Origin: Alphaproteobacteria bacterium
GTDB lineage: Bacteria > Pseudomonadota > Alphaproteobacteria > UBA2966
DNA: 64,000 nucleotides
NCBI GenBank assembly: GCA_964291395.2
Contig: OZ219856.1
Span: 448,001-512,000 of the forward strand
Reading direction: 5' to 3'
The position numbers and the translations under genes are program-made. Position 1 is the stretch's first letter. Each line of letters starts with the position of its first letter. The notes beneath the pieces were generated by a model. It was not told where the DNA came from. It searched no databases and saw only the letters and a program-made list of their open reading frames with translations. This document shows, one piece after another, positions 1,411-52,943 of this stretch.

Positions 1411-2211
1411 ATGAACAATCCGCAGGCACAGGCAAAACCGGGGGGTGGCGCCGCCAAAGCCGTGCGGCATGCCATCATCGCAATCGCCGCGGTGACTCTG
1501 GCCGCCACGTCCCCCGCAAGCGGCGGGCGGGCGGAGTCGGCCGCCGCGCCGCCGCCCGACAGGGACGCCGTCCGCAAGATCGTCAAGGAATACCTGCTCG
1601 AACATCCCGAGATCATCGAGGATGCCATCCGGGTTCTTCAGGCCAGGCGGGAGTCGCAGGAGCGGGACCGTGTCCAGGCCTCACTCCGCCAGCACGGGGA
1701 GGCGTTGCGGGCCCATCCGATGTCCCCGGTCTCCGGCAACCCGAACGGAGACGTCACCCTCGTCGAGTTCTTCGACTACCAGTGCGGCTTTTGCAAAAGG
1801 TCGCTGAAGCCGGTGATGGACCTTCTGGAGACCGACAAGCGGCTCCGTATCGTCTGGAAGGAGTTTCCCATCCTCGGTCCGGTCTCGCGGTTCGCGGCGC
1901 GCGCGGCGATGGCTTCCGTCAAGCAGGGCCTCTACCTCGAATTCCATGTCGCCGTCATGGGATCGCGGGGCCGACTGACGGAACAACGGGTCATGGACAT
2001 CGCCGGTGATGTCGGCCTCGACGTCCAGCGCCTTCGCCGCGACATGGAGGACCCCGACATCGAGGGGTATCTCGACGAAACGATCCGCTTGGCACGGATC
2101 CTCGGCATCAACGGCACGCCGGCCTTTGTAATTGGCGACACGCTGGTTCCGGGCGCCGTGGGTCACGCACGCCTGAAGGAGCTGATCGGCAAGGCCCGGT
2201 CCGGAGGCTAG
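1411..2211 (+). CDS. DsbA family thiol-disulfide oxidoreductase
   Basis: EFFDYQCGFCK CxxC motif, cis-Pro GTP motif, YLLEHPE N-terminal helix, signal peptide. Confidence 0.9.
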   Translation: MNNPQAQAKPGGGAAKAVRHAIIAIAAVTLAATSPASGGRAESAAAPPPDRDAVRKIVKEYLLEHPEIIEDAIRVLQARRESQERDRVQASLRQHGEALRAHPMSPVSGNPNGDVTLVEFFDYQCGFCKRSLKPVMDLLETDKRLRIVWKEFPILGPVSRFAARAAMASVKQGLYLEFHVAVMGSRGRLTEQRVMDIAGDVGLDVQRLRRDMEDPDIEGYLDETIRLARILGINGTPAFVIGDTLVPGAVGHARLKELIGKARSGG

Positions 2212-2312
2212 GAAGAATCCCGTCTGCCTCCACTGCAGATTGCAATCCGGCCTCGCAACACGATGTCTGCCATTACCGAGGTCGATACCAAGGTACGACC
2301 AACGAGGTAACT

Positions 2313-2915
2313 GTGATGTCAATCCGCCGGAAAGCGTGCTTTCTCCTGCTTCCCCTCCTTCTTGCCCTTACTCCGCCGCGTCCGGCCGGGGCGGCGGAGA
2401 ACTCGCCATCGCCCTACGCCGGTCAGGAAGCCCGGCCGATCAAGAGCCTGTCTGCAGACGACCTTGCCGAACTCCGGCGAGGCGGCGGCTGGGGACTCGC
2501 CAAGGCGGCCGAACTCAACGGCATGCCCGGCCCCGCCCACCTGCTGGGGTTGAAAGACCGGATTCCCCTGACCACAGGCCAGGTGAGTGCGATCACCGCC
2601 GTCTTCGACGACATGCGCACAACCGCAATTACCGAGGGCGAACGCCTCATTGCCCGCGAGGAGGCGCTGGAGATGGCGTTCAGGAACGGCAGCGTTACCG
2701 AGAGCTCGCTGCTCGCCATGCTGTCGGAGATCGGACAGGCGCGGACGGCGTTGCGCTATACGCATCTGGCCGCGCACTTGAAGACGCTTCCACTGCTCAC
2801 AGGCGACCAGATCGCGCGTTACAACGTTCTGCGCGGATATAGCGGCGACCCTTGCGCAAGCCCGCCCCAGGGACATGACCTTCGAATGTGGCGCAAACAC
2901 AACGACTGCGAATGA
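2313..2915 (+). CDS. Periplasmic Spy/CpxP-like or heavy-metal sensor-like helical protein
   Basis: Signal peptide; [19 protein letters not shown] and LT.DQ...YN.LRGY motifs. Confidence 0.7.
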
Positions 2916-3132
2916 CTCCAACCCCGGCTGCAGGGCCTTCGGGCAGGCCTCGAGGCTCTCCAAATCCCTTCCGTCGCCATCGCCGCGACCACATCGACCG
3001 CTTCGACGGCTATCCCGCCGAATCCGTCGAGGACCGGCGCAGGCCCCGGGGGCTCCGGGTGGATTGAATCCGATTCCGGACCCCGCGTTCACCATTGTTG
3101 CGTACCGACCGCCGAGGCCTATATTGCCCGCC

Positions 3133-4293
3133 ATGGCGGTGATCGACTCCATATCTGCGCCGGTGCCTGAAGCGGCATCGACCCCCCTGCCGGAGATTGA
3201 TGTCGCGGCCGGCTCGCGTGTGGTCGTGGCGATGTCGGGAGGGGTCGACTCCTCGGTGACGGCCGCCGTCTGCAAGGCCCGGGGTTACGAGGTCGTCGGA
3301 ATCACCCTGCAGCTCTACGACCAGGGGGCGGCCTCGAACCGCAAGGGCGCCTGCTGTGCCGGACAGGACATCCACGATGCACGCCGCGTGGCCGCTTCGC
3401 TCGGCATCCCCCACTACGTGCTCGACTACGAGGCCCGCTTTCGCGAAAGCGTCATCGACGACTTCGCCGATACCTACCTCGCCGGCGAGACACCGGTTCC
3501 CTGCGTCCGCTGCAACCAGACGGTGAAGTTCCGCGATCTGGTGGCCGTGGCACGGGATCTCGGCGCCGCGGCCCTGGCGACCGGGCACTACGTGCGGCGC
3601 ACTCTCGGGCCGGCCGGTCCCGAGATGCGCCGGCCGGCCGATCTCGCGCGGGACCAGAGCTATTTCCTGTTCGCAACCACGCGCGAACAACTCGCGTATC
3701 TGCGCTTTCCGCTCGGCGGTCTCGACAAGGCGCGGACTCGCGCACTGGCCGCCCGTTTCGACTTACCCGTCGCCGCCAAGCCCGACAGTCAGGACATCTG
3801 TTTCGTGCCCCGCGGTTCCTACGCCGATGTCGTCGCCAGGCTCCGCCCGGGAGCGATCGAGCCGGGCGACATCGTCCACGTCGATGGACGCGTGGTGGGC
3901 CGGCACGACGGCGTGATCGGGTTCACCGTCGGTCAGCGCCGTGGCCTTGGGGTGGGCGGCGAGGCCGCGCCGCTCTACGTGGTCCGTCTCGAACCGGAAT
4001 CGCGCCGGGTCGTCGTCGGACCCCGCGAGGCGCTGCTGGGGCGGGAGTTCAGGACCCGGGACGTCAATTGGCTCCGGGATGCGCCGGAGGCGGGCGACGG
4101 GATCCGTGTCGCGGTCAAGGTGCGGTCCACGCATGCGCCCGTGCCGGCGGCGGTCGTCCCCGACGAGGCCGGCGGTGCGTGCGTGGCGCTGGATCGTCCC
4201 GAGGCCGGGCTCGCGCCCGGACAGGCCGCCGTCTTCTACGACGGTGACCGCGTTCTGGGCGGCGGCTGGATCTGCCGTCTCCCCGGCCGCTGA
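3133..4293 (+). CDS. mnmA: tRNA 2-thiouridylase MnmA
   Basis: SGGVDS PP-loop, [32 protein letters not shown]. Confidence 0.96.
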
Positions 4294-4320
4294 CTCCGGC
4301 CGTCCCCGGTCCTCCAGCGG

Positions 4321-5529
4321 ATGAGCGCCGAGACGTCCCGGGTGGCGGCCCCGCCGCGCCCGCCGCCCATCGCCATCCTCATCGTCATCGCGGGTCTCGG
4401 ACCGACGTCGCTGAACATCTTTCTGCCGTCCATGCCGGGACTGATGCGCGCGTACGGCACCGGCTACGACACGGCGCAGCTCACGTTGTCGCTCTATCTC
4501 GTGGGTCTCGCCGTGGCGCAGCTCGGCTACGGCCCGCTCTCGGACCGCTTCGGCCGCCGCCCCGCGTTGCTCGGAGGTCTCGTCCTCTATCTGGTTGGAA
4601 GCGTCGCCTGCATCGCCGCACCGACCATCGACGCGTTGATCGCGGGCCGCGTCCTTCAAGCCGTAGGCGGATGCTCGGGAATCGTCATCAGCCGAGCCAT
4701 CATTCGCGACGTCTACGATCGCGGCCGCGCGGCCAGTGTTCTCGCCTACGTCACCATGGCCATGGTGGTCGCCCCGTTGATGGCGCCGACGGTCGGCGGA
4801 TTCCTCGACGACTGGTTTGGATGGCGGGCGGGTTTCATGCTCATGGCCGCCATCGGCGTGGTCACCCTCGCGGCATGCTTCCTGTTGCTGAACGAGACGC
4901 ATACGCCGCGGAAGGACCCCGCGCCCCAACGAGGCCTTTGGGAGGGCGCGACGGCTCTCCTCGGCCGTCGGCGCTTTCACGGCTATGCCCTCCAGGTCGC
5001 GTTCAACTCGGGCGTGTTCTACGCGTTCATCGCCGGTGCCCCTTACGTCATGATCGAGCTGTTGCAACGGTCCGCGGGCGAGTACGGCCTGTGGTTCGCC
5101 GTCGCCTCCGCCGTCTACATGTTGGGGAATTTCACCGCAGGGCGCATTTCCGAGCGGGTCGGCCCGGACCGCATGATCACCGTCGGCACGACGATCTCGC
5201 TGGTCGGCGTGGCCGCGCTGGGCGCCTTCTACCTCGGCGACGTGGTATCGCCGGCAACCCTGTTTGGCGGCATGTCGATCGTCGCCTTCGGAAACGGCAT
5301 GAGCATTCCCAACGGGATCTCGGGCGCCGTCAGCGTCGACCCCGCCCGGGCGGGCACCGCATCGGGGTTCTCGGGATTCTCGCAGATGGCGATCGGCGCG
5401 GGGACGTCCTGGGCCGTCGGGTCCCTGCTCATGGACACGGCAGGCCCGCTCGTCGCCGTCATGATCTTCAGTTCGGTCGCGGCGCGGTGTTGCTTCGAGT
5501 GGGGCGTGCGGCGCGTGCCTCTTGCTTGA
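4321..5529 (+). CDS. Bcr/CflA family MFS multidrug efflux transporter
   Basis: About 12 hydrophobic segments, GPLSDRFGRRP motif A, IFLPSMP motif. Confidence 0.9.
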   Translation: MSAETSRVAAPPRPPPIAILIVIAGLGPTSLNIFLPSMPGLMRAYGTGYDTAQLTLSLYLVGLAVAQLGYGPLSDRFGRRPALLGGLVLYLVGSVACIAAPTIDALIAGRVLQAVGGCSGIVISRAIIRDVYDRGRAASVLAYVTMAMVVAPLMAPTVGGFLDDWFGWRAGFMLMAAIGVVTLAACFLLLNETHTPRKDPAPQRGLWEGATALLGRRRFHGYALQVAFNSGVFYAFIAGAPYVMIELLQRSAGEYGLWFAVASAVYMLGNFTAGRISERVGPDRMITVGTTISLVGVAALGAFYLGDVVSPATLFGGMSIVAFGNGMSIPNGISGAVSVDPARAGTASGFSGFSQMAIGAGTSWAVGSLLMDTAGPLVAVMIFSSVAARCCFEWGVRRVPLA

Positions 5530-5554
5530 CAGGCGGCGGAGCCATAATTATAGG
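5526..5554 (+). promoter_or_regulatory. Sigma70 promoter of tRNA-Met
   Basis: TTGACA(5526)-N17-TATAGG(5549), ending 15 nt before the tRNA. Confidence 0.7.
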
Positions 5555-5569
5555 CCGGAGCCCTCGGGT

Positions 5570-5646
5570 GGCGGAGTAGCTCAGCCGGTTAGAGCAGCGG
5601 AATCATAATCCGCGTGTCGGGGGTTCGAGTCCCTCCTCCGCTACCA
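5570..5646 (+). tRNA. tRNA-Met(CAT), elongator
   Basis: 77-nt cloverleaf: GGCGGAG/CTCCGCT acceptor, GCGGA-ATCATAA-TCCGC anticodon arm, GGTTCGAGTCC T-arm, encoded CCA; lacks the initiator C1:A72 mismatch and GGG/CCC stem. Confidence 0.95.
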
Positions 5647-5789
5647 ACCTTTTACAGCAGATTCGGCCGATACCCGTACCGCCTGCGTGCCGGCGGCGAC
5701 ACGCAGCGGGGTCTCGCGATACTCGACAAGAGTTCCCACGAGACGACGCTGCAGAAAATGCCGATTGGGTTTCGGACACTTGACCGGTC

Positions 5790-5824
5790 AAGCGGGACAA
5801 GGCGGGACTAGCCGAGACTTGGCG
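5790..5824 (+). repeat. 10-bp-periodic CG(G/A)GAC triplet array, islet left end
   Basis: Motifs at 5793, 5803 and 5813; 32/35 identical to the reverse complement of about 63399-63433. Confidence 0.7.
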
Positions 5825-5901
5825 TTCCCTGGTCCGCGAAATACCGGCAGTCCCGGCGCCACAACCGGATGAGATCCTTCAACGGAACGCTCCACGCGAA
5901 T

Positions 5902-6187
5902 TGTCGATGGCGAACGAAAACTGGACATTTCTGGCAATCGAAAACTGAACACTTTGGGCGTGGGGGCGTACCCCCAAGCGGGTGTTAGACTCGGTGGAGC
6001 AACGCGACCGCCCACGAGTCTGGCGGCGACAAGCCAGTTATCCACAGCGGGCCGGCCGCACCGTCGCCTTTGTGCCCGGCGATCACTACGCGGCCCTCTT
6101 GCGGCGCCGATCCGAGCCGGATTGCAGCAGGTTCTGGTGATCCCGCATGCGGTATGAGTTCCCTCGGATGTTGACGATGTGGCAGTG
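5902..6187 (-). mobile_element. IS21-family remnant: right end plus istB 3' fragment
   Basis: TGT terminus with internal GAAAACTG repeats; minus strand 6187-6086 reads HCHIVNIRGNSYRMRDHQ...*, an IstB C-terminus. Confidence 0.8.
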
Positions 6188-6188
6188 G

Positions 6189-6295
6189 CTGGTCTCGACG
6201 GTGCAGCGCTATTTCTACCAGTGGCGCGACAACAGGCTGTGGCAGACGATCCGGTTCGATCTGGCCATGCAGGCGCGTCGAGCGCAGGACGCGCA
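6189..6295 (+). pseudogene. IS5-family transposase fragment
   Basis: STVQRYFYQWRDNRLWQTI..LAMQAR resembles the IS5 N-terminal motif. Confidence 0.65.
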
Positions 6296-6366
6296 AGAGC
6301 TCGTATTCGGTAGCGGTCAGCGCGACCGGGTTTCAGGCGACCGACACCCGGCGGCGCCCGTAGCGC

Positions 6367-7701
6367 TTACGGCATTCTCCATAATCGGGACATCGGCACT
6401 GCGTGAAAGCGATCGCCAAAGGGGACGGCGGTCTCGCCGTCATAGAGCACCACGCCGCGGACGAAGCGGTCACCGGCTGCTCTTTCGAGTTTGCGCAGTC
6501 CACGAAAGTCTCTCGAACTCACCGACGCGGCCGCCTTGATTTCCACGCCGGCGACGGCGCCGGACGCCTGCTCCATCACGATATCCGTTTCGGCGCCGTC
6601 CTTGTCCCGGAAATGGAAGAACCCGGTGGGTGTGTCTTGCCAACTCGCTTGTCTTCGCAATTCCTGAAACGCGAAGGTTTCCAGGAATTGCCCCAGAAGG
6701 GTTCGATCCGCCGCCAGCGCCTTGGCGTCGGCGCCGAGCAAGGCCGCGGCGAGGCCGGTATCGGTGAGATGCAACTTCGGACTCTTGACCAGCCGCCTCA
6801 GTCGATTGCCGTGCCAGGCAGGGAGCCGTTCCAGCAGGAAAAGCCTCTCGAGGAGCGTGACGTAATCCCCGATTGACGGCCGGCTGAGCTCGAAGGGAGA
6901 GGCCAGACTGCTGAGGTTGAACAACTGAGCCGTCCGGGCAGCCGCGGCGCGCAGAAGCCTTGGCAGGACGTCGAGCGAGCGGACCCGAGTTATGTCTCGC
7001 ACGTCGCGCTGGACGAGTGCCTCCACATAGTCGCGATACCAGTTTGCCGAACGCCTCAAGGTCGGTCGTTCCAATGCCGCAGGATAGCCGCCGGCAACGA
7101 CCGTCTCGACGAGCCGTGCTCCGAGACGCTCGCATTGGAACATCGGGAAGCCGTCACCGAACAGAGCGTTCAGGAAGCCCGCATCGGGACGAGCTGGATC
7201 TGACCGACCTGCAAGCTCAAACTGTGTCAAGGGATGCAAGGGCACGATCTGCAAGCGCCCCGCGAGCGAATCCGACAATTGGGGAACAAGAAAGACGTTG
7301 GTGGAGCCCGTAAGCAGGAAACGTCCCGCCCGCTGGCGGTCGACGGATATCTTGATCGCCTCAAACAGCTCGGGAACACGCTGGACCTCGTCGAGGATGA
7401 CGCGCTCCGGCAAGTCAGCAACGAAACCCGTCGGGTCCGCCCGGGCGCCGTCTCTCGTGACGGGATCGTCGAAGCTGAAATACTTGTAGTCCCGACCTTC
7501 CCGGGAGTATCCCCATGCAAGCCGATCGCCGCCCCAGGTCAGTCGCCGGCCCCCCAGGTGGTAGTTCGGCGTGCAGGTGATCTGGGCGAGCGTTGTCTTG
7601 CCGCACTGACGCGGGCCGTGAATCAGCACGACCGGCGAATCCTCGAGCGCTTCGACAAGCCGACGCTCGGCGGACCGGGGATAGAAGACCGGATTCGACA
7701 T
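6367..7701 (-). CDS. AAA+ ATPase with DUF4143/PD-(D/E)xK nuclease-like tail (AAA_14 type)
   Basis: GPRQCGKTT, DEVQ, LTGS, SLAGR, GGYP, KSPK, ETD..EIK; start MSNPVFYPR preferred over the longer ORF. Confidence 0.88.
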   Translation of the reverse strand: MSNPVFYPRSAERRLVEALEDSPVVLIHGPRQCGKTTLAQITCTPNYHLGGRRLTWGGDRLAWGYSREGRDYKYFSFDDPVTRDGARADPTGFVADLPERVILDEVQRVPELFEAIKISVDRQRAGRFLLTGSTNVFLVPQLSDSLAGRLQIVPLHPLTQFELAGRSDPARPDAGFLNALFGDGFPMFQCERLGARLVETVVAGGYPAALERPTLRRSANWYRDYVEALVQRDVRDITRVRSLDVLPRLLRAAAARTAQLFNLSSLASPFELSRPSIGDYVTLLERLFLLERLPAWHGNRLRRLVKSPKLHLTDTGLAAALLGADAKALAADRTLLGQFLETFAFQELRRQASWQDTPTGFFHFRDKDGAETDIVMEQASGAVAGVEIKAAASVSSRDFRGLRKLERAAGDRFVRGVVLYDGETAVPFGDRFHAVPMSRLWRMP

Positions 7702-7993
7702 CGGCCAATTGTAAGTTTGGACTTCGGCCGATTGCAAGATTGCGTCTCGGCCAATTGAAGACAAACCCATCGATTGCAGGTGAGTGAGCGCCCTCTCGTC
7801 AGGGGTGATCGAACATGGGCTGACCGGCCTGCGGGTGTGACAGCACAACGGCGTGAAGCCAACGTCAAATAACGCGGAATCGCCGTCAAATGTCGCCAGA
7901 ATCCCCGTCGTACGCCAGAATCCGCAAAGGGAAGGTGCTGCGCGCAGGCCGGATGGACGGTGCAACGAAATTAGGCAGGTTTGACAACAGACT

Positions 7994-8023
7994 TGTTGCC
8001 AACGATATTGATGCCAACAATAT
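7994..8023 (+). repeat. 15-bp tandem direct repeat near the islet right end
   Basis: TGTTGCCAACGATAT / TGATGCCAACAATAT. Confidence 0.6.
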
Positions 8024-8093
8024 CGAGTGTCGAAGACAGACTCGACCATGCGAAAGCGTGGGCCACCGCGCTCCCCGGCCGCAAGCTGGATTT

Positions 8094-8119
8094 GTCCCGG
8101 ATCGTCCCGTATGGTGCCG
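8094..8119 (-). repeat. 10-bp-periodic GTCCCG triplet array, islet right end, inverted relative to the left array
   Basis: GTCCCG at 8094, GTCCCG at 8104, GTGCCG at 8114. Confidence 0.55.
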
Positions 8120-8209
8120 GGAACCGTCATTCGGAACGTGTCCGGCAATGCGGGACGGATCATATGTCCCTATTGAAAAGACTCGTGAAAACAACATGAT
8201 ATGTCTTTG

Positions 8210-8264
8210 GAGCAGCGGAATCACAATCCGCGTGTCGGGGGTTCGAGTCCCTCCTCCGCTACCA
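8210..8264 (+). repeat. attR: duplicated 3' 55 bp of tRNA-Met
   Basis: Identical to 5592-5646 except anticodon CAT>CAC at 8224. Confidence 0.92.
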
Positions 8265-8350
8265 CTCGTTCCCTCCCCGGTCTATGCCGGAGACACGGGT
8301 AACGGAACGTACCCGGGACACGGGGTGACAACGCCGGTTCGAACGGATTC

Positions 8351-9235
8351 ATGCTGACGCCGACCCAGATAGGGGAGTACGAGGAACGGGGTTTCACGCT
8401 CGTCGAGGGCGCGGTCCCCCCCGATCTGCTCGCCGAGCTGCGCGCCGGCACGGACGAGATCGTCGAGGCCGCCCGCGGCCTGACCGAAAGCGACGAACGC
8501 TACGACTTGGAGGCGTTGCACACGCCGGAGGCGCCGAGGGTTCGCCGGCTCAAGTCGCCCTATCTGTTCTGGCCGCTGTTCGCGAAGCTCGTCCGGGAAG
8601 CGTGCATCCTGGATGCCGTGGAAGATCTGCTCGGGCACGACCTCAGGCTCTACAACCACAAGGTGAACATCAAGGCGCCGGAATACGGGGCTGCCGTCGA
8701 ATGGCATCAGGATTGGGCCTTTTATCCCCACACGAATGACGACGGTCTCGCCGCCGGGATCTACCTGGACGACGTGACGGAGGAGAACGGACCGATGATG
8801 ATCGTGCCGGGCTCGCACAGGGGAGAGGTCTACGATCATCATGCCGGCGGCTACTTTTGCGGCGCCATCGACCCGACGGCCTGCGACCTGGATTTCGGCG
8901 GCGCGGTACCGCTCACGGGTCCGGCCGGCACCATGACCCTCCACCATGTCAGGGCCGTACACGGGTCGGACCTCAACCGGTCCTCGCGTCCGCGCCGGTT
9001 CGTGATCCAGGGCTATTTCGCGGCCGACGCCTGGCCGCTGCAAGGGTATATCAAGAACTTCGACCTCGAGACGTTCGACGCCAAGATCGTGCGGGGCAGC
9101 CCGACGGGCGCACCGCGCATGGCCGATGTGCCGGTGCGCATACCGCTGCCCGAGGCGCTCAATCAGGGTTCCATCTACGAAAATCAGAACACCCTGGAGC
9201 ACCGCTACTTCGCCGCCTACGAAGAGGTCGCGTAG
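8351..9235 (+). CDS. Phytanoyl-CoA dioxygenase (PhyH) family Fe/2-oxoglutarate oxygenase
   Basis: WHQD, ENGP...PGSH and HGS.....R motifs. Confidence 0.92.
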   Translation: MLTPTQIGEYEERGFTLVEGAVPPDLLAELRAGTDEIVEAARGLTESDERYDLEALHTPEAPRVRRLKSPYLFWPLFAKLVREACILDAVEDLLGHDLRLYNHKVNIKAPEYGAAVEWHQDWAFYPHTNDDGLAAGIYLDDVTEENGPMMIVPGSHRGEVYDHHAGGYFCGAIDPTACDLDFGGAVPLTGPAGTMTLHHVRAVHGSDLNRSSRPRRFVIQGYFAADAWPLQGYIKNFDLETFDAKIVRGSPTGAPRMADVPVRIPLPEALNQGSIYENQNTLEHRYFAAYEEVA

Positions 9236-9630: not shown

Positions 9631-11619
9631 ATGGGTGAGCCCCGGACGCCTGTCTTCATGTCCGCCAAGGAGGTCCTTGGCTATGACCTTCCCCGGTATC
9701 CCTATCGCATGCCGGAGGAGCAGCGGACGGGACGTGCCGCGCGACATCCCGTGATCGTTGTCGGCGCGGGCCTCGTTGGTTTGACGGCCGCGGTCGATCT
9801 CTCGGTTCGCGGCATCCCCGTCGTCCTCCTCGACGACTCCGACACGGTGGGAGCGCGCGGGCTCTCGTCACGGGGCGTGAACTTCGCCCGGCGCTCGCTC
9901 GAGATCTGGGACCGACTCGGGATGGGGGACCGGGTGGTGGAGAAAGGTGTCGTCTGGAACGTGCACCGCACCTACCTGGGGCCCGACACCATCTACGCCT
10001 ACGAGATGAACCCCGATCCGGATCAGAAGCATCCCGCGATTCTGGCGTTGCAGCAGTATCACGTGGAGCAGTACCTGATTGACCGGCTGAGGGAGCTCGG
10101 CATGGCCGACCTGCGCTGGCGGAACGAAGTCGTGTCCGTAAACGTGAAACCGGACCATGCCTCGGTCGAGGTTCGCACTCCGGACGGGCTGTACGGCATC
10201 GAGGCCGAATATCTGCTCGCCTGCGACGGTGCTCACAGCGCGGTCCGGAAATCGCTGGGCCTGGACTCGGCGGAAATGGCGTTCGATCGCTGGTTCATTT
10301 CAGACGTCAAAATCGAAACGGAGATCGCCCGCGAACGGCATCTGTGGATCGATCCGCCGTTCCATGAGGGGCGGTGCGCACTTCTCATCGAGATGGCGGA
10401 CGGCGTTTGGCGGACCGACATGCAACTCGGCGAAGACGCCGATATGGCCGACGCGGTAACCCCGGAACGTGCGATGGAGCGCCTCGACCGCATGTTCGGC
10501 GTCGACACGTCGTACGGGATCGTGTGGGCGGGCGCCTACAGTTTCCAGTTCCGGGTCCTGGACGAATTCCGGCACGGACGGGTCTTTTTCCTGGGCGACG
10601 CCGCGCACGAAAACCCACCCTTCGGCGGCCGTGGCGGAAACGGCGGCATCCAGGACGCGGACAACCTGGTTTGGAAGCTGGATCTCGTACTGAGGGGGCG
10701 GGCTCCGAGCACGTTGCTCGATACCTATCATCGGGAACGACATCCGGCGGCAGTGGAGAACATCGCGCAGACCGCGCGCAGTTGCTGGTTCCTGTCACCG
10801 CAATCCCGGGGAAGGCGCCTCTTGCGGGACGCCGTGCTGTCGTTCGCCAAAACGGATCCCGAGATCCGCCCGCTGGTCAACACGGGGCGCATGTCCGTGC
10901 CGTTCTCCTACGACTCGTCCGACCTGATCACGGCGGATTCCGACGAATGGGAAGGTGGCCCGCCTCCCGGCGCCGCCGTGCCCAACTGCAGGGTCGAGAC
11001 GATGGACGGCTCCTCCGCGCTGGCAGGCCACCTGTTGGACGATTGGGGCGGCGAGTTCGTTTGCCTCTGTTTCGCGGGCGCGGTAGCCGACATGCCGGAG
11101 GATGCGCGGCGGTACCTGCGAGGGAAGCTCCAGGCGGACCTTCCCGTGGAAACCCGGTTGCTGGTGACGGGGGGCGAGGCGGACGCGGAGTTCCGTACGA
11201 TCCGCGATTCCCGGAACGCCGCGTTCCGCGCTTATGCCGCGGAGCCGGGCTGTGTCTATCTGGTCCGCCCCGACGGGCACGCGGCGGCGCGGTGGCGCAC
11301 GTTCGATCCGGAACGGGTGGAAACCGCGATTTCGCGGGCCGCGGGACGGCACGCACCTGCCGGCGCGACCGGACCACGGACCCCGTCGTCCGCCGGAGAC
11401 CTGCGATTGCCCGATCCCGAGCGGCTGGACGAGCGCCTGTTCGAGAGGCTGGTCGATTCGGTGGATGCGGCCGAGCCCGACGCCGTTCCCGTTTTCCTGG
11501 AGCGTCTGGTACTGCACCTGAGCCGGCGTATCGAGGACCCCGACGTCGTCCGCGGCGCGATTTCGGCTTCTCTCCAGGATGTCGCCGCGGACGTCCACGG
11601 GGATTCAAGTCCGGCTTGA
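9631..11619 (+). CDS. FAD-dependent monooxygenase (MhpA/PheA-like) with extra C-terminal helical domain
   Basis: GAGLVG, ACDGAHS, GDAAH..PFGGRGGNGGIQDA.NL.WKL, LVRPDGH; GGAGG RBS. Confidence 0.9.
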   Translation: MGEPRTPVFMSAKEVLGYDLPRYPYRMPEEQRTGRAARHPVIVVGAGLVGLTAAVDLSVRGIPVVLLDDSDTVGARGLSSRGVNFARRSLEIWDRLGMGDRVVEKGVVWNVHRTYLGPDTIYAYEMNPDPDQKHPAILALQQYHVEQYLIDRLRELGMADLRWRNEVVSVNVKPDHASVEVRTPDGLYGIEAEYLLACDGAHSAVRKSLGLDSAEMAFDRWFISDVKIETEIARERHLWIDPPFHEGRCALLIEMADGVWRTDMQLGEDADMADAVTPERAMERLDRMFGVDTSYGIVWAGAYSFQFRVLDEFRHGRVFFLGDAAHENPPFGGRGGNGGIQDADNLVWKLDLVLRGRAPSTLLDTYHRERHPAAVENIAQTARSCWFLSPQSRGRRLLRDAVLSFAKTDPEIRPLVNTGRMSVPFSYDSSDLITADSDEWEGGPPPGAAVPNCRVETMDGSSALAGHLLDDWGGEFVCLCFAGAVADMPEDARRYLRGKLQADLPVETRLLVTGGEADAEFRTIRDSRNAAFRAYAAEPGCVYLVRPDGHAAARWRTFDPERVETAISRAAGRHAPAGATGPRTPSSAGDLRLPDPERLDERLFERLVDSVDAAEPDAVPVFLERLVLHLSRRIEDPDVVRGAISASLQDVAADVHGDSSPA

Positions 11620-12849
11620 ACCCCCGTGCCGATTGCCGGCGCCGGCCGCCGCGCGCGCCGCGCGCGCGGGATCGAAGGCCAGGTCGTCGTCGCCGAAGAG
11701 ATCCGGGGGGTCCGCCTGATCCGCGCCGACCAGATTGCTCGCGCCGATGCCGATGAGGCGGAACCGCTGACCGCCGGAGAGGCGTGCCAGGGGCTGAAGG
11801 GCGGTCTCATACAGGGTTCGTGCGCGCCGGGTGGGCTCGGCTATGGTGCAGCTCCGCGTGAGGTTCCTGAAGCCGGAGGTCTTCAGCTTCAGGACGACCG
11901 TCCCGGCCGCAAAGCCGGAGGACTCGAGACGGCCGGCCACGCTTTCCGCCAGCGGCCACAAGGCCGAGGCGAGCACTTCCAGATCGGAAGTGTCGTGATC
12001 GAACGTGGTCTCGGACGAGATGCTCTTGGTCCGGCGAACGGGCGATACCCTGCGAGCGTCTTCGCCGCGGGCAAACCGCGCCAGCCGGCGGCCGACGGCG
12101 CCGTACCTGTCGAGCAGGACGGGCTCGTCGACGGCCCGCAGGTCGGAAATCGTCTCGACGCCGTCGCCGGCGAGACGCTTTTCGAGCGCCGGACCGACCC
12201 CCGGCAGCAGTCGAACCGGCTTGTCCGACAGGAATTCCTGGGCCTCTCGCCGGCCGATCACCGAGAAGCCGCGGGGCTTGTCCAGGTCGGAGGCGATCTT
12301 GGCGAGGAACTTGTTGTAGCTCAGACCGACCGACGCCGTGATCCGGACGTCTCGCTCGATCTTTCCGACCAGTCTCGCGACGCGCCGGGCGGGCGACGCC
12401 GTGCCGGACGACCTTCCCTCGCCGAGGTCCAGGAAGGCCTCGTCGATCGAGAGGGGCTCGACCAGGGGCGTCACGCCGCGCATGAGTTCACGGACTTGCC
12501 GCCCGACGGCGGAATATTTGGCCCGGTCCGGCGGCAGCACGACGGCTTCCGGGCATCTCTCCAGCGCCTGGAACATGGGCATCGCGGAGCGGATGCCGAA
12601 ACGGCGCGCGACGTAGCACGCCGCCATGACGACGCCCCGATGCCGACCGCCGACGACGACGGGCCGGTCGGTCAGACGGGGATCGTCGCGTTTCTCGATC
12701 GTGGCATAGAAGGCGTCGCAGTCGACGTGAACGATGGAGAGCTCGTTCAGTTCGGGGTGGGCGATCGTTCGTTCGGAACCGCAGGACGGGCACCGAACCG
12801 CTCGACCGGCGTCGAAGACCGAGGTGCAGTCGCGGCACAGTCCAGGCAT
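11605..12849 (-). CDS. dinB: DNA polymerase IV
   Basis: HVDCDAFYA, YVARRFGIRSAMP, SIDEAFLD, AKIASDLDKP; N-terminal CxxC..CxxC. Confidence 0.95.
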   Translation of the reverse strand: MPGLCRDCTSVFDAGRAVRCPSCGSERTIAHPELNELSIVHVDCDAFYATIEKRDDPRLTDRPVVVGGRHRGVVMAACYVARRFGIRSAMPMFQALERCPEAVVLPPDRAKYSAVGRQVRELMRGVTPLVEPLSIDEAFLDLGEGRSSGTASPARRVARLVGKIERDVRITASVGLSYNKFLAKIASDLDKPRGFSVIGRREAQEFLSDKPVRLLPGVGPALEKRLAGDGVETISDLRAVDEPVLLDRYGAVGRRLARFARGEDARRVSPVRRTKSISSETTFDHDTSDLEVLASALWPLAESVAGRLESSGFAAGTVVLKLKTSGFRNLTRSCTIAEPTRRARTLYETALQPLARLSGGQRFRLIGIGASNLVGADQADPPDLFGDDDLAFDPARAARAAAGAGNRHGGSSRT

Positions 12850-13264: not shown

Positions 13265-13888
13265 ATGCGCACGGTCGTGTATGTAGACGGGTTCAATCTC
13301 TACTATGGAGCCCTGAAGGATACACGCTGGAAGTGGTTGGACTTGGTAGCACTGTTCGAGGAAGTGCTCCAACCACATCACCAGATCCTCGCGGTGAAGT
13401 ATTTCACGGCCAGGGTTTCGGATACGGCCCGTGACCCAGCCAAGAGCCAACGACAAGATGTTTATCTACGAGCGCTGCGGCATCATCGGCCAGAAGTAGA
13501 GGTGTACTTTGGGCATTTCCTAACCAATAGGACGCGAATGCCGCTCGTGCGGCCGATCGGAGGTCGGCGTACAGTGGAGGTGATCAAGACCGAGGAAAAG
13601 GGTTCGGATGTCAATCTCGCTGTACATCTCCTGAACGACGCTTGGCTGGGCGCCTACGATTGCGCGGTTGTGGTGAGCAACGATGGCGATGTTGCAGAGG
13701 CGATGCGCTTGGTTAGAGAGTACCACAACAAGCGGCTCGGCTTACTGACGCCGGGTACCCGACTATCGTCCAAGCAACTCAGGACAAACGCAGACTTCAC
13801 GCGCCGCATCCGACAGACCGCCCTGCGGCGTTCTCAATTGCCAGATCCGATCCCTGGTACAAACATCCGGAAACCTCGGAGTTGGTAG
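13265..13888 (+). CDS. NYN domain (LabA/DUF88, PIN-like) ribonuclease
   Basis: YVDGFNLYY, EEKGSDVNLA and VSNDGD acidic catalytic motifs; lower GC than neighbours. Confidence 0.9.
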   Translation: MRTVVYVDGFNLYYGALKDTRWKWLDLVALFEEVLQPHHQILAVKYFTARVSDTARDPAKSQRQDVYLRALRHHRPEVEVYFGHFLTNRTRMPLVRPIGGRRTVEVIKTEEKGSDVNLAVHLLNDAWLGAYDCAVVVSNDGDVAEAMRLVREYHNKRLGLLTPGTRLSSKQLRTNADFTRRIRQTALRRSQLPDPIPGTNIRKPRSW

Positions 13889-13991: not shown

Positions 13992-15239
13992 TCACTGGGG
14001 CATGTGCCAGCGGGGTCGTGACGGGCGCGCCAGACCGCGCGCTTCGAGAATCGTACGCGGCACGAGGGAATGCTCCGCCACTGACTTCAGGCCGGCGTGG
14101 GTTCCTTCCAGGAACCGCCGGTGAAGGGCCAGGAGAACGTGACCCAGCGTGGTCTCTTTCCACAGCCACCGCTGAACGTCCCGGGCCGCCGCTCCCGGCC
14201 GCGCCGTCGCTGCCTCGCAGTACAGGGCCTTGAGATCTTCCACGCAGTGCTTGAAGACCTCTTCGATCGACGATTCCGGGACCGGGTTGTCAGGGTGATC
14301 GTCCAGGAAGCCGCCGATGAAGGCAGCCGCGGATTCGGGATCGAGGCTGCAGGCGCCCACCGTGGTCCGGTTGCGCCGTTCGCGGGAGAGCCCATACCAG
14401 GGCAACAGGGACCGGAGTTCGCGAACCAGAGCCGCGGCGAGGTCATCCTCGGCCACCGGAGGCGGCGCAAGGGTCACCGGACAGGCCCAACCGTCCGCAT
14501 CGATGTCGGCCTGATCCGGCAGGTCCCGGTCGTATTCCGTCAGCAGCGGCCCGTTTGCCGCGTCAAACAGGTCGAGTGCCGCCCGCAGGACACGCCGTTG
14601 AAACGGCGCGTCGCCGGGGAGACCGAAGGGGCGTCCCAACGGGAAGCTGACCCAGAGCGCCCGTGGCGGTGAGATCGCCGCGGTGTGTTCCCGGACCAGG
14701 CTGATCTGCGTCGTCGGAATCCCCGAGCCTTCCAGGTAGTGGGCGAGCGCGCCGACGGCGCGCGTGCAGCTCGGTCACACGGGAACGAGGAGCACGGCGT
14801 TCACACGGTCTTCGCGAAGAAGCGCCGCCACGGTCGCGGCGTTCTCCCGCATCCACGCGGGATGGGTACCGCCGCCCATGAACGAGTAGTGATAGTCGGC
14901 AATCGAGCCGATCAGACGGTCGCGGGCCAGCTCCCGGAGGCGGTCGATGGGAAAGACGGCATTGAGATCTTCCTGGAATCCCGTCCGATCGAAGTTGACC
15001 GATACGTGGCTCATGACGAGGTCGTCACCCGTGCTCGTGCCGGGGATGACTCGATAATCTCCGGCCCCCGGCAGAAAGGGGCGATCGCCGCGCCGATGCA
15101 GTCCGGCCGTCGTGACGATGGCGACGCGCCGTTCCGTGGCCGCCGCCGCCGCCGCCCACGGCCGACCCTCGAAGGAGGGTACGTCGGCGTTCAAGATGTG
15201 CCGGCGATCCCAATCCGCGAGATCGCTGAGTCGTACCAT
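13992..15239 (-). CDS. GrdB/PrdB-like reductase selenoprotein, paralog B (415 aa, Sec at TGA 14775-14777)
   Basis: ORFs 14775-15239 and 13992-14639 are in frame; readthrough gives LVPV-U-PSCTRAVGALAHYLEGSGIPT..PPRALWVSFPLGRPFG; TTAG, FPIDRL and HYSFMG motifs. Confidence 0.9.
14747..14774 (-). promoter_or_regulatory. Bacterial SECIS element of paralog B
   Basis: UGA, 11 nt, then GCGCGCC-GUC-GGCGCGC; loop starts with G. Confidence 0.75.
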
Positions 15240-15243
15240 CGGA

Positions 15244-16473
15244 TCAGTTTAGCGGAGACCAGTGTTGCTGCAGGCGCGGAATCAGATATTGCTTGCCGAT
15301 AAGCTGGAACGTCTCATCCGCGTTTCTCAGCAGAATCTTCTGCAGGTCGAAGAACACGGAGCCCGCCGTCGTCTCGCCAAAGAACCAGGCGTCCAGATCG
15401 CCGCTGGTGGGCGCGCCGGGTTGGGCGAGCATCGCCTCGTAGTAATAAGCCTTGATGTCGTCGCAGGCCCATTTCAGAGCGCGGTCCACGCGGGCGCCGC
15501 CGATGGGGCTTTCCGGAATCTCGCCCGACAGGAAAGAAAGCACGAACGCGGCCGCGTCCGGCATCTCGAGACCGCTCGACCCGACGGTTGATCGTTCCGT
15601 CTTGCGGACGGCCAAGTCATGCCAAGGCGCGAGCCGGGCCATTTCCCTTGATAGCTTGGCATCCATCGACTCGTCGCCGGGGGTAGCCGAGGGGGAGGCG
15701 AGGCCAATCGGGCAGACCCACGGCTCCTCGTCGTCGCCTCGGTCGCGGGCGGCAGGCGCGTCTTCGGAGTAGTCCGCAATTATGGGACCGTCTGTGGATT
15801 CCAGCAGTTTCAACGCCGCTTTGACGACGCGCCGCTGAAAATCGGCGTCGTTCGGGACGCCGAGCGGCCGACCGAGCTCAAACGTCACCCAGAGCGTTCG
15901 GGGCGTGCGGTTCTTCTCGCTGTGTTCCCGAATCAAGCTGATATGCACCGTCGGGATGCCTTCGCGTTCGAGATGCTTTGCCAGCGCGCCCCCGGCGCGC
16001 GTGCAGGCCGGTCACACGGGGGTGAGAAGGACAGCGTCCACGGCGTCCTTCTTGAGAAGTCCCGCGAGCTGGGCCGCGGCCGGCTCCAGGGTGACCGGGT
16101 CGCTGGCGCCCATGAACGAGTAGTGAAAATCCGCGACCGATCCGATGACCCCGTCGTCGGCGAGCTCCCGCAGCCGGTCGATGGGAAAGACCACGTTGAC
16201 GTCCCGCTGGAAACCGCTCCGGTCATAATTGATGGACGCGTGGCTCATGACCAGCCGACTGGCATCCACATCGGCCGGGATCACACGATAGTCGCTCGAT
16301 CCCATGGCGAACCGCGGGTCCTCACGTGCGGTCAGGCCCGCGGTCGTTACGATCGCCACCCGGCGCTCCTTCAGGGGAGGGCCTGCAACGCAGGGCGCGT
16401 CCTCGATTTCCGGGATGGGCATGTTCTCGAGGAAGGTTCGTTCGGGCACGGGGACATCGGCCAGTCGTACCAT
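15244..16473 (-). CDS. GrdB/PrdB-like reductase selenoprotein, paralog A (409 aa, Sec at TGA 16012-16014)
   Basis: ORFs 16012-16551 and 15244-15948 are in frame; readthrough gives LTPV-U-PACTRAGGALAKHLEREGIPT..TPRTLWVTFELGRPLG; start MVRLAD matches paralog MVRLSD. Confidence 0.9.
15984..16011 (-). promoter_or_regulatory. Bacterial SECIS element of paralog A
   Basis: UGA, 11 nt, then GCGCGCC-GGG-GGCGCGC. Confidence 0.72.
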
Positions 16474-16648
16474 GATCGGGCCTTTCGGAGTTTTCGGTGC
16501 CGCCGGAGCACCGTGCGCAAATTCAGGCCGCGTAGTTATGCCCCGAGGCAAGGCATGTCAACCCGGCCGGCCCCCAGCCGGCCCCGGGATGGCCGTCCTC
16601 ATTCCCCGGTCAGGTGCTTGGACAACCCGACGACGCCCAGCTTGCCGC

Positions 16649-17380
16649 TCAGGGCAGCAACGCGTTGCCCAGGCCGCTGCCGCCGTCCACGAACAGCGTC
16701 TGTCCGGTTATGAATTCGGAAGAATCCTGCATCAGGAACCCGACCGCGTTGGCAATATCGGCAGGCTCCGCAAAGCGCCCAACCGCAATGCGATGCAGCT
16801 TGCGCTCTCGCTGCGGGCTTCCGATCGGATTGTTCCTGAGGAAGAATTCGGTGTTCGTCGGGCCCGGTGCAACGGCGTTGACGGTGATGCCGTGACTCGC
16901 CAACTCGAGCGCCCAGGTGCGGGTAAAGCTGATGAGCATGGATTTCGTACCCGAGTACGCCGTGCGCTTCGGGATACCGAGAACCAAATCGCTCGAGATG
17001 TTGACGATTCGCCCGAACTTCTGCCTCTTCATGGCCGGAAGGCACGCCTGGGCACACTGAATGGAGGTTATTACGTTGATCTCCATTACATGGTCGAACA
17101 CCTCGAGCTCGATTTCCTCGAGACTTTGTTCTCCCGTGGTTCCGACATTGTTCAGCAGCCCGTTGAACTCGTAACGCTCGGCCAATTCGGCCAATAATAT
17201 TCGGGTTGCGGTCCTGTCGCTGAAATCGCAGGCGAAGTGATCTCCGGGAAACTCGTCGTCGGGTGCGTCCAAATCCAGATTGACGATGTGATGGCCGGAA
17301 GCGGCGAGTTGCTCGGCGCAGCGTCGTCCGATGCCTCGGCTGGCACCGGTTATGAGAGTTGTTTTTGTCGAGTCCGTCAT
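16649..17380 (-). CDS. SDR family NAD(P)-dependent oxidoreductase
   Basis: TGASRGIG, NNVG, YSGTK, NAVAPG, GQTLFVDGG. Confidence 0.92.
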   Translation of the reverse strand: MTDSTKTTLITGASRGIGRRCAEQLAASGHHIVNLDLDAPDDEFPGDHFACDFSDRTATRILLAELAERYEFNGLLNNVGTTGEQSLEEIELEVFDHVMEINVITSIQCAQACLPAMKRQKFGRIVNISSDLVLGIPKRTAYSGTKSMLISFTRTWALELASHGITVNAVAPGPTNTEFFLRNNPIGSPQRERKLHRIAVGRFAEPADIANAVGFLMQDSSEFITGQTLFVDGGSGLGNALLP

Positions 17381-17856: not shown

Positions 17857-20193
17857 TCAGCTTCGGGCCTTCGCTTCTCCGATGAGTTCGATAAGACGCG
17901 GCGGGCTGACGGGCGCTTCTCGAATGCGCACGTCGAAAGGCGTCAGCGCGTTTTCGATCGCGGATATCACGGCCGCGACGGCGGGGATGACGCCGGCTTC
18001 CCCCACGCCCTTGACGCCCAGGGGATTGACTGTCGAGGGCGTCTCGTGATGGATGATCTCGACGTTCGGCACGACGGGAGCCGTGGGCAGGAGGTACTCC
18101 GCGAACGTCGTGGTCACGGGCTGTCCGGTGTCGTCGTAGCCCATCCACTCGAACAGCGCGTTCCCGATGCCGTGCGCGACACCGCCAATGATCTGTCCCT
18201 CGACGATCATCGGGTTGATCAGGCGGCCGGAGTCGTTGACCACGAGGTAACGGGTGATCCGGACTCCGCCGGTGCCGATATCCACATCGACCTCGACGAC
18301 ATGCACGCTGTTGCCGTAGGTGAGGCCCGTGGGCAGGAAGTTGACGGTGGCTTCCAATCCCGGAGGCATGTCCTTCGGCCGCGCGTAGCCTGCGGCGCCG
18401 GACAGAGCCCTGGCGACGTCGGCCAACGACACCGAAAGGTCCGGGACGCCTGCGACGGAAATCTCGCCGTTCGTCAGCTCGAGATCCTGATCTGAAACCT
18501 CCAGCATGTGAGCCGCCGTTTTCAGCGCCTTCTCGCGCACTTCGATGGACGCCAGATGTATGGACGAACCGGCCGTGACGGTCTGGCGGCTGCCGAACCC
18601 GCCGATGCCCATCGGAACGGTGCCGGTGTCCCCCGCGATTACTTTGATGTCCTCGGGCTCCACCCCCAGTTGATCGGCGCAGATCTGCGCGTACGAGGTC
18701 TTGATGCCTTGCCCCATCGGCATCGCACCGGTGTGGACCGTGATCCGGCCGGACGGGCCGATGCGAACGATTCCCGTCTCGAAGGGGCCGCGGCCGGTGA
18801 TCTTCGTGCAGTTTGCGACGCCCACCCCGATGTAGCGGCCTTGGTCGCGGGCCGCTGCCTGCCTCTCCGCGAACCGGTCGTAGTCCGAGCCCTTCAGCGC
18901 CTTCTCCAGGCAGCTCGGGAAATCACCGCTTTCATAGTGCGTGGTAGAGCCGTCCCGTGCCTTCAAGGGCAATTCGTAGGGAATGCTGTCGGCGGGAATG
19001 AGGTTTCGGCGGCGGATTTCGGCACGATCGACGTCGAGTTCCTCGGCGATGGCATCCATCGCCCGTTCCATGGTGAATGTGCCTTCGGGGTAACCGGCGC
19101 CTCGAACGGGAATGGTGCCGACACGGTTGGTCGCTGCGATCGTCACGTCGAGCTGGTAGTTGGGCAGCAGATACGGTCCGGGAACGGCGATGGACGCGTT
19201 GTGGGGAACGTTGAAGCCGAGCAGCGTGTAAGCGCCCTGGTCGTGAATCATGGAACCGCGTAAGCCGAGCAGGCGGCCTTCCGCGTCCGTGGCCACTTCG
19301 ACATCCCAATATTGGTCGCGTTCCTGGATGGCGGCGAGAAAATGCTCGCGACGGTCTTCGATCCATTTGACGGGGCGCTTACACAGAAGCGCGGCTCCAG
19401 CCACGACGACCTCTTCCGGATAGACGACGTGCTTGGATCCGAATCCGCCTCCGACGTCCGGCGTTATGGTGCGTACCAGAGTTTCATCGAGGCCGTAGAT
19501 GTCCACGAGCGTGTTGCGCACGCGATGCGCGCCTTGTGTCGACGACCAGACCGTCAATCCCCCGGTGGAGGAGTCGAACTGGGCGACGATCCCCCGTCCC
19601 TCGAGGGGGTGTCCGCTGCCGCGATGCTGCTTGAGCGAAAGCGCGAGAACGTGGGCGGCAGCTGCGAAGGCAGGTCGGCAGTCGCCGTATTCCGTGCGAA
19701 ACCTCGCCACGACGTTGTCCGGAGCGTCCCGGTGGACTCGGGGGGCGTCGGGCGCCAATGCGTCTCTGCAGTCCGAGACCGAAGGAAGAACTTCGTACGT
19801 CACATCGATCAGAGCAACCGCATCCTCCGCGACATAGCGAGAGTCCGCGAGCACGATCGCCACGATTTCGCCGACGTAGCAGACTTCTTCCTCCGCCAAT
19901 ACGATGGCCTTCGTGGACTCGGCGAATTTCAGCGTCGGGTTGTCCGGCGGGATCAGATTCTTGGTCAGAAGTGGCGCAAGGTCCGCATAACTGAACACGG
20001 CATGGACGCCGCGCAGGTTTCGGGCTGCGGTCGAATCGACGGAGCGTATCAGCGCGTGCGGATGCGGACTCCGCACGAAGGCGGCCTCCACCGTCCCGGG
20101 CAACTCGATATCGTCCGCGAACCGGGCCGTGCCGGTGAGCAGGGCCGCGTCCTCGAGGCGACGTGTGGGCGAGCCGATGAAATCCCCTGTCAC
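17857..20193 (-). CDS. Xanthine dehydrogenase family Mo-binding large subunit (CoxL-like)
   Basis: GGGFGSK, RGAG, GQG, GSR, EGQIIGG and KGVGE motifs. Confidence 0.93.
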   Translation of the reverse strand: MTGDFIGSPTRRLEDAALLTGTARFADDIELPGTVEAAFVRSPHPHALIRSVDSTAARNLRGVHAVFSYADLAPLLTKNLIPPDNPTLKFAESTKAIVLAEEEVCYVGEIVAIVLADSRYVAEDAVALIDVTYEVLPSVSDCRDALAPDAPRVHRDAPDNVVARFRTEYGDCRPAFAAAAHVLALSLKQHRGSGHPLEGRGIVAQFDSSTGGLTVWSSTQGAHRVRNTLVDIYGLDETLVRTITPDVGGGFGSKHVVYPEEVVVAGAALLCKRPVKWIEDRREHFLAAIQERDQYWDVEVATDAEGRLLGLRGSMIHDQGAYTLLGFNVPHNASIAVPGPYLLPNYQLDVTIAATNRVGTIPVRGAGYPEGTFTMERAMDAIAEELDVDRAEIRRRNLIPADSIPYELPLKARDGSTTHYESGDFPSCLEKALKGSDYDRFAERQAAARDQGRYIGVGVANCTKITGRGPFETGIVRIGPSGRITVHTGAMPMGQGIKTSYAQICADQLGVEPEDIKVIAGDTGTVPMGIGGFGSRQTVTAGSSIHLASIEVREKALKTAAHMLEVSDQDLELTNGEISVAGVPDLSVSLADVARALSGAAGYARPKDMPPGLEATVNFLPTGLTYGNSVHVVEVDVDIGTGGVRITRYLVVNDSGRLINPMIVEGQIIGGVAHGIGNALFEWMGYDDTGQPVTTTFAEYLLPTAPVVPNVEIIHHETPSTVNPLGVKGVGEAGVIPAVAAVISAIENALTPFDVRIREAPVSPPRLIELIGEAKARS

Positions 20194-52894: not shown

Positions 52895-52943
52895 TCCGGG
52901 GGGATCTGCGCGGAGTTCCGGTTCGAATAGGGAGGGAGTAGAG

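Follow-up and report, generated by a model that had tools for sequence, protein, structure and literature searches.

On the minus strand of a 64,000-nucleotide stretch of an alphaproteobacterial genome (GenBank assembly GCA_964291395.2, contig OZ219856.1, positions 448,001 to 512,000; hereafter the window), table-11 gene calling gives four open reading frames (ORFs), at 16012..16551, 15244..15948, 14775..15239 and 13992..14639. When in-frame TGA is read as selenocysteine (Sec, U), these four ORFs merge into two genes, here called A and B, which encode long-form relatives of the D-proline reductase selenoprotein PrdB (Table 1). TGA is also the terminal stop of both genes, and the spacer separating the A stop codon from the B start codon is so short that the two are likely to be translationally coupled. 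The two products share 47% identity over 402 residues (E 2e-116) in an alignment that spans the recoded column, with TPVUPACTR of A opposite VPVUPSCTR of B and homology on either side. A sequence-only reading of this DNA had described four ORF pieces joining into two genes 4 nt apart, each with one in-frame TGA at the same aligned position, a UxxC motif of the GrdB/PrdB superfamily and homology continuing past the stop. All of this was confirmed: U154 of A and U155 of B share a column, the conserved stretch that it quoted beyond the stop is found in the A/B alignment, and the Pfam and NCBIfam searches described below agree with that alignment that these are two real UGA-recoded genes.

The genome encodes a complete set of Sec-decoding genes. 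Scores of 573.6 bits for selA, 425.6 for selB and 309.6 for selD exceed the respective cut-offs. Genes selA and selB adjoin on contig C1, the contig that holds the window, with a tRNA-SeC (tca) gene, that is selC, immediately beside selB, and selD lies on C1 as well. The assembly comprises 4.16 Mb in 3 contigs and is 98.1% complete.

We then consider the recoded column in relatives, for which one genome per species was scanned (158 relatives) and the best 80 of the 158 were used. The column was a stop in 80/80 of these loci and the stop was TGA in 76/76 loci read by codon (61 plus 15 more); for L057, L070, L078 and L083 the stop is known from a tblastn asterisk. Among loci read over the whole match, 66/67 had exactly one in-frame stop, the TGA, across about 400 codons, and the exception (L037) had an extra in-frame TAA besides its TGA. 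As 66 of these 67 homologous loci hold a single in-frame stop and that stop is a TGA, the recoding of A and B is far beyond chance. Cys occupied the Sec column in all 21 full-length uninterrupted homologues of one alignment (A1) and in 31 of the 32 uninterrupted homologues of a second, partly overlapping set (the exception being P0149). Among the tests of the recoding named in the sequence-only reading were the presence of selA, selB, selC and selD and the occurrence of TGA or Cys at this column in homologues, and both came out in its favor. We conclude that the internal TGA of each gene very probably encodes selenocysteine.

The way in which the family is held in sequence libraries is consistent with this. 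A word-index search listed 120 matches, of which 21 were full length and 99 were C-terminal pieces of 226–264 aa. In an exhaustive profile search the best 150 representatives contained 120 C-terminal fragments, starting at profile positions 156–197, and 4 N-terminal fragments that end exactly at position 153, the residue before Sec; the remaining 26 include full-length Cys forms. Because the library fragments begin after the Sec codon or end just before it, gene callers evidently split the long-form PrdB-like family there as a matter of routine, just as had been expected of standard annotation at the present locus.

A hairpin resembling a bacterial selenocysteine insertion sequence (SECIS) follows each UGA (Table 1), its stem beginning 11 nt past the UGA and its apical loop lying at +18 nt in both genes. 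Bacterial SECIS elements usually have their apical loop 16–37 nt from the UGA, with a G early in the loop. The hairpin alignment comprised 71 sequences (69 distinct) from Alpha-, Beta- and Gammaproteobacteria, Thermodesulfobacteriota, Chloroflexota, Bacteroidota, Nitrospinota and others. With the nine-pair structure 88.6% of cells were paired, compared with 26–58% when the 3' partners were slid, and none of 500 shuffles matched the observed paired percentage, the covariation score or the number of double changes. Covariation was seen at pair 16–30, which is C-G in 57, U-A in 9 and U-G in 2 sequences. Third codon positions were nearly fixed within the stem (Thr G 64/69, Gly C 68/69, Ala C 59/69; entropy 0.11–0.76) and free at the Val codon of the loop (1.88) and at the four-fold sites flanking the stem (1.58 for Pro, 1.73 for Leu and 1.93 for the codon after), where entropy ranged over 1.58–1.93. 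In a small sample of five Cys-form genes of the same class, some of them sharing a clade, 4–6 of the 7 stem pairs were kept, and the peptide there differs. In a separate observation, a clade of Burkholderiales metagenome-assembled genomes (MAGs; L070, L082, L084, L085, L093) and its sister betaproteobacterial clades carry the motif UPNCTC, with Arg changed to Cys, and in 9/11 of these sequences the opposing SECIS base shifts in step, from C-G to U-A.

Family membership was assessed with Pfam and NCBIfam models. Both proteins matched PF07355 (GRDB) above its gathering cut-off of 22 bits, A with 46.7 bits (residues 12–151) and B with 39.3 bits, and in both the match stops at the residue before Sec. 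The best NCBIfam match was PrdB itself (TIGR04483), at 124.4 bits for A and 108.3 bits for B, short of the equivalog cut-off of 300; residues 33–227 align to model positions 26–221 of 238. The GrdB, GrdF and GrdH models gave 50–78 bits and did not reach their cut-offs of 602–800 (for GrdB, with a cut-off of 602, A scored 76 and B 50 bits), and A was above the cut-off of the TIGR01918 subfamily (81 bits; cut-off 65.45). The core of A and B corresponds to the whole of PrdB and to the C-terminal half of GrdB, and is followed by about 180 additional residues. AlphaFold2, given an alignment of 81 rows, returned a confident model (pLDDT 90.6, pTM 0.90) with an alpha/beta domain at residues ~32–240, a low-confidence linker at 241–270, in which the nearly invariant Cys254 sits, and an all-helical domain at 270–405. 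Many polar residues are invariant in the family, namely R63, H78, D84, R85, D91 and N93 among others. For the C-terminal part of the Cys homologue P0011, ESM Atlas gave only unnamed clusters with scores < 0.9, and a search for fused forms of > 716 aa found none, which is weak evidence. Since the scores lie far below the PrdB and GrdB cut-offs and a C-terminal helical domain of ~180 aa is added, A and B are, by their sequences, not canonical PrdB or GrdB.

Comparison with the characterized enzymes makes the difference clearer. Clostridial PrdB (26 kDa) has a homologous alpha/beta core with Sec in a UxxC motif at the equivalent place, but is a single domain of ~238 aa, whereas A and B have 409 and 415 aa. 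It is partnered by the pyruvoyl proprotein PrdA and by PrdC, neither of which was found in the A/B genome. GrdB (TIGR01917), GrdF (NF040794) and GrdH (NF040795) share a Pfam family with A and B, whose core corresponds to the C-terminal half (positions ~200–422) of these ~435-aa proteins; the extra domain is N-terminal in GrdB and C-terminal in A and B. The third Cys of the GrdB motif UxxCxxC, as given in the available part of a 2026 review (PMC13188914), is missing from UPACTRA and UPSCTRA. The Cys-form long homologues of Alphaproteobacteria have the length and domains of A and B, to which they are 34–46% identical; they carry CPxC, with Cys for Sec, the post-motif peptide CTRATCAIA and the reduced hairpin stem noted above.

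The sequence-only reading had found no canonical reductase partner within the 64 kb and many oxygenases in the host, and the first of these statements holds when widened to the genome. No match to PF09338 (PrdA/GrdE) or PF04723 (GrdA; no positive control for this family) was found in the whole 98%-complete genome, and the best PrdC score there was 46.4 bits against a cut-off of 490. PF09338 was likewise found in none of 14 control genomes; the search itself works, since over 401 genomes of the class it found one gene, in genome G223, at 468.7 bits. In the same sample of 401, the long-form PrdB-like family was present at E <= 1e-20 in 54 genomes (44/308 genera), most of its matches containing one TGA and five none, and 53 of these 54 genomes lacked PF09338. 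The assembly with the PF09338 gene is 71% complete; a different contig of it encodes a short-form Sec relative, which is not a GrdB, and G223 was therefore rejected as a source of a true GrdB whose N-terminal domain could be compared with the C-terminal domain of A and B. The A/B genome encodes a haem-copper oxidase (COX1, 557.5 bits), and the window encodes PhyH, TauD, flavin, luciferase-like and Rieske oxygenases, suggesting that the organism is an aerobe. Across the whole genome, then, the evidence supports an aerobic host that lacks the canonical partners.

The genome contains six PF07355 matches, all of which end at a TGA; besides A and B they comprise three long forms (410–432 aa) and one short form. 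Each of the four outside the window lies in a distinct catabolic neighborhood (TauD/FMO/AtuA; GMC oxidoreductase/aldehyde dehydrogenase/tautomerase; SDR/TRAP binding protein; GntR/binding protein), and the other three long forms are solitary genes. In a FastTree tree of 94 sequences, A and B each fell in a strongly supported clade of six, together with copies from five related alphaproteobacterial MAGs. The A-type and B-type clades are separate and not sisters, so that the tandem pair must be old, with both copies retained. Tandem pairs were found in 7/80 related loci (L015–L019, L049 and L067), most loci being single-copy. The pair at L049 consists of two divergent copies, while that at L067 consists of sister copies and looks like a recent duplication.

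Further evidence comes from earlier surveys, which show that the family is not new. The sequence-only reading had presented the pair as hidden, and neither this nor novelty was borne out. In the Sargasso Sea data of 2005, 'Proline reductase PrdB', with a UxxC motif, was the third most abundant selenoprotein family, with 42 genes (Zhang, Fomenko & Gladyshev, PMC1088965), and the part of the supplement available lists long-form TGA ORFs with a C-terminal extension under that name, alongside short forms. Motifs in common with A and B are PVuPxCTRAVG..., WVPFELGRP..., WACP... and RGRTTVG...; in that part of the supplement, compared by motif and by eye rather than by scored alignment, uPxCTRAV occurs in 8 places and FELGRP in 2, with long C-terminal extensions, and one entry is close to the paralog at C1:680227. 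The family was again among the most abundant in the Global Ocean Sampling data, with 235 Sec and 110 Cys forms according to the accessible text (Zhang & Gladyshev, 2008, PMC2398784), and the sections available of other surveys tabulate 'proline reductase' among widespread bacterial selenoproteins, including those of Anaeromyxobacter and Geobacter (PMC1794560, PMC5029168, PMC9312934, PMC13188914). The 2005 and 2008 surveys do not separate long forms from short ones, naming both after the clostridial enzyme, and in their available portions neither the extra domain nor the missing PrdA is discussed. Our search of the literature available to us found no paper that sets the long form apart from PrdB or treats the absent PrdA. 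The long-form PrdB-like family is thus already catalogued, but misnamed. Three things are new here: a tandem pair that is conserved, an expansion to six copies within a single aerobic alphaproteobacterium, and the explicit finding that the proteins fail the tests for membership of PrdB and GrdB. Set against the environmental surveys, the tandem arrangement and the presence of six copies in a single genome distinguish the present case.

Neighboring genes were clustered for 85 loci (1002 ORFs; cluster 2 is an antisense ORF artifact), and no universal partner gene was found among them. The commonest true neighbor was an SDR gene (10/85 loci). In the window, an SDR gene and a molybdenum hydroxylase gene lie upstream of A, in an arrangement that is not kept in close relatives. 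In the five closest MAGs synteny is limited to the A/B pair and the downstream dinB; because dinB directly follows the pair there, the NYN-domain gene found between B and dinB in the window, in a stretch of 58% GC, looks like a local insertion.

Other neighbors were bound to particular lineages. An Ldh_2-family dehydrogenase gene adjoins on the same strand, at 40–170 nt, in five Burkholderiales loci (L070, L082, L084, L085, L093). A tauD gene lies 64–66 nt from the gene in L075 and L092, is divergent from the paralog at C1:804125, follows the gene in genome G251 and is fused to it in P0021 (= G364:C20). Genes for an FMO-like protein and a GST lie upstream in G251 and G085, and an FMO-like gene is found beside the gene in G183 and near the paralog at C1:804125. 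Pyr_redox_2 is adjacent in three Thermodesulfobacteriota loci, CoA-transferase III is 1.7–6.5 kb away in 7 loci, CMD/AhpD-like genes are near in 4 loci, and selB lies inside the locus in 4/85. In two genomes with Cys forms, genes for TetR, an FMO-like protein of ~615 aa, a GST and the PrdB-like protein form a row (Table 1). This Cys-form row, with TauD downstream in G251 and fused to the protein in P0021, is the most consistent functional lead that we found in these gene arrangements. Together the lineage-bound neighbors point to a thiol-linked step in oxygenase-based catabolism, as leads and not as proof.

Elsewhere in the window, a tRNA-Met gene is followed by a gene for an AAA_14/DUF4143 ATPase, whose third-position GC is below that of its neighbors; this may be a small integrated element. 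A HipA-like kinase toxin gene is also present. About 35 kb from the pair, genes for a BCCT betaine/carnitine/choline transporter and a Rieske-domain oxygenase lie near each other, which suggests quaternary-amine catabolism.

Table 1. Features of the A/B locus, its paralogs and other loci mentioned in the text. Positions are those of the window unless a contig or locus is named.
Feature	Position	Strand	Remarks
Gene A, long-form PrdB-like selenoprotein	15247-16473	-	409 aa; with terminal TGA stop (15244-15246), 15244..16473
Sec codon (UGA) of gene A	16012-16014	-	U154 in TPV-U-PAC
SECIS-like hairpin of gene A	15980..16004	-	7-bp G/C stem GCGCGCC / GGCGCGC, loop GGG, and two outer pairs
Spacer, stop of A to ATG of B	15240-15243	-	TCCG, 4 nt; junction TGA-TCCG-ATG
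Gene B, long-form PrdB-like selenoprotein	13995-15239	-	415 aa; with terminal TGA stop (13992-13994), 13992..15239
Sec codon (UGA) of gene B	14775-14777	-	U155 in VPV-U-PSC
SECIS-like hairpin of gene B	14743..14767	-	GCGCGCC-GUC-GGCGCGC and outer pairs, register as in A
Long-form Sec codon elsewhere	G000:C1:804125	-	
Long-form Sec codon elsewhere	G000:C1:680227	-	
Long-form Sec codon elsewhere	G000:C1:2343715	+	
Short form	~C1:550300-551270	+	PMUPVCHQT
SDR gene	16649-17380	-	upstream of gene A; 175 nt from SDR stop to start of A
Molybdenum hydroxylase large subunit gene	17857-20193	-	xanthine dehydrogenase family; upstream of gene A, same strand
NYN-domain gene	13265-13888	+	PF01936, 38.5 bits
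dinB	11605-12849		downstream of the pair
tRNA-Met (cat)	5570-5646	+	
AAA_14/DUF4143 ATPase gene	6367-8163	-	598 aa
HipA-like kinase toxin gene	46314-47573	-	HipA_C and Couple_hipA
BCCT transporter and Rieske-domain oxygenase genes	51236-55620	+	
Cys-form gene row, L124 (G251:C2:1632000-1641000)	2869-8372	-	TetR / FMO-like / GST / PrdB-like
Cys-form gene row, L125 (G085)	3697-8238	-	TetR / FMO-like / GST / PrdB-like
PF09338 gene, L123 (G223:C38)	1761-3002	+	sole such gene in 401 class genomes

Our recoding, family and neighborhood analyses make it very likely that A and B are genuine selenoproteins of a long-form, PrdB-like branch of the GrdB/PrdB superfamily (PF07355); by analogy, they may use a PrdB/GrdB-like redox mechanism in aerobic catabolism without PrdA, GrdE, GrdA or PrdC. 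SelB and Sec-tRNA(Sec) would bind the hairpin, so that Sec is inserted and the full-length proteins of 409 and 415 aa are made. The N-terminal alpha/beta domain, equivalent to the whole of the 238-aa PrdB, would bear the redox pair U154/C157 (U155/C158 in B), followed by a probably flexible linker with C254 and by the predicted all-helical C-terminal domain, which appears specific to the family. By analogy with PrdB and GrdB, the selenolate may attack an electrophilic atom of a small-molecule substrate, a nearby Cys may resolve the adduct to give a Se-S bond, and that bond may then be re-reduced by a thiol system, be it thioredoxin, glutathione or a flavoprotein disulfide reductase. The C-terminal domain would presumably supply the substrate site for action without the four canonical partners, and the role of the proteins would lie in aerobic catabolic neighborhoods rather than in Stickland fermentation.

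Several observations weigh against this interpretation. Gene B falls under the TIGR01918 subfamily cut-off (54.6 vs 65.45 bits). A sequence search of the PDB gave no match at E <= 1 and Foldseek against the PDB none at E <= 0.001, while a wide VIA-align search gave only generic Rossmann-type matches over residues 32–240 (best match Z 8.6, root-mean-square deviation 3.0, 133 aligned), with the C-terminal domain barely covered. Pfam at E <= 10 also had nothing for the ~180-aa C-terminal domain, and the proposed chemistry is drawn wholly from analogy. As for Sec insertion, Sec in A and B is deduced from genes and not from protein. Shuffled sequences folded as well as the 71-nt stretches after the UGAs (z = 1.12 and -0.08), although no excess of minimum free energy over shuffles is expected in DNA of 64% GC. 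Rfam models gave nothing at the locus (E <= 10), and the hairpin overlaps the conserved peptide CTRAVGALA, so that part of its conservation comes from coding. Finally, the estimated contamination of the genome is 9%, but the sel genes and the window are both on contig C1.

The alternatives differ in how well they survive. One is that A and B are plain thiol- or selenol-disulfide oxidoreductases, or redox sensors, acting on protein or low-molecular-weight disulfides or on peroxides, with no cleavage of a C-X bond. UxxC is a generic thioredoxin-type redox motif in the tables available from PMC1088965, the family has no conserved metabolic partner, and the CMD/AhpD-like and Pyr_redox_2 neighbors would suit such a role. 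We nevertheless think this unlikely, as the model does not show a thioredoxin-like fold, a small-molecule site is suggested by the many invariant polar residues and by the size and conservation of the C-terminal domain, and six paralogs, each in a different catabolic neighborhood, fit substrate diversification better than housekeeping redox.

A further proposal, raised as a possibility in the sequence-only reading, is that the two proteins pair as an obligate heterodimer. With 4 nt between them, the genes may well be co-translated; the five related alphaproteobacterial MAGs all keep an A-type gene next to a B-type gene, each type in a well-supported clade of its own, and L049 holds another pair of divergent paralogs. 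Single genes at most loci, the solitary state of the other three long forms in this genome and the apparently recent duplication at L067 speak the other way, and we regard obligate pairing as doubtful.

It is very improbable that A and B are a canonical PrdB or a glycine/betaine reductase protein B, with PrdA/GrdE, GrdA and PrdC encoded elsewhere. PrdB is indeed the best NCBIfam match, the UxxC motif is present and the surveys, in the parts available, use the name; yet the scores reach less than half of the PrdB cut-off and a small fraction of that of GrdB, the C-terminal domain is additional, the genome lacks PF09338, PF04723 and a true PrdC, nearly all family-positive genomes of the class lack PF09338, and the host has a haem-copper oxidase. 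That the TGAs are true stops, leaving four small genes or two nonsense-killed pseudogenes, is hardly credible even though table-11 calling yields four ORFs and databases carry the halves as separate 'hypothetical proteins', because the same codon is a stop across many phyla in frames that are otherwise open, Cys takes its place in uninterrupted homologues, the genome encodes the machinery for Sec, and the 21 codons from the TGA of A to the next possible start (GTG at 15948) encode one of the best-conserved stretches of the family.

With A and B taken as long-form PrdB-like selenoproteins, the annotation of this genome changes from four fragments to two selenoproteins, and with the four found elsewhere to six members of the family. 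The family is common, with 2454 library clusters at E <= 1e-10 besides the 54/401 genomes of the class and a place among the top families of ocean surveys, and the name 'proline reductase' is not backed by the features that define that enzyme. The question of substrate may be approached through the Cys homologues and the recurrent TauD, FMO and GST neighbors. More speculatively, and with low confidence, the long forms may be self-sufficient selenoenzymes independent of PrdA and GrdA, in which the helical domain, perhaps with Cys254, replaces the pyruvoyl subunit, and A and B, as a heterodimer, would carry out a thiol-driven reductive step after FMO and TauD oxygenases and glutathione transferases in the aerobic catabolism of dissolved organics. 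If this were so, one of the most abundant selenoprotein families of ocean and soil would be an aerobic catabolic reductase and not a Stickland enzyme.

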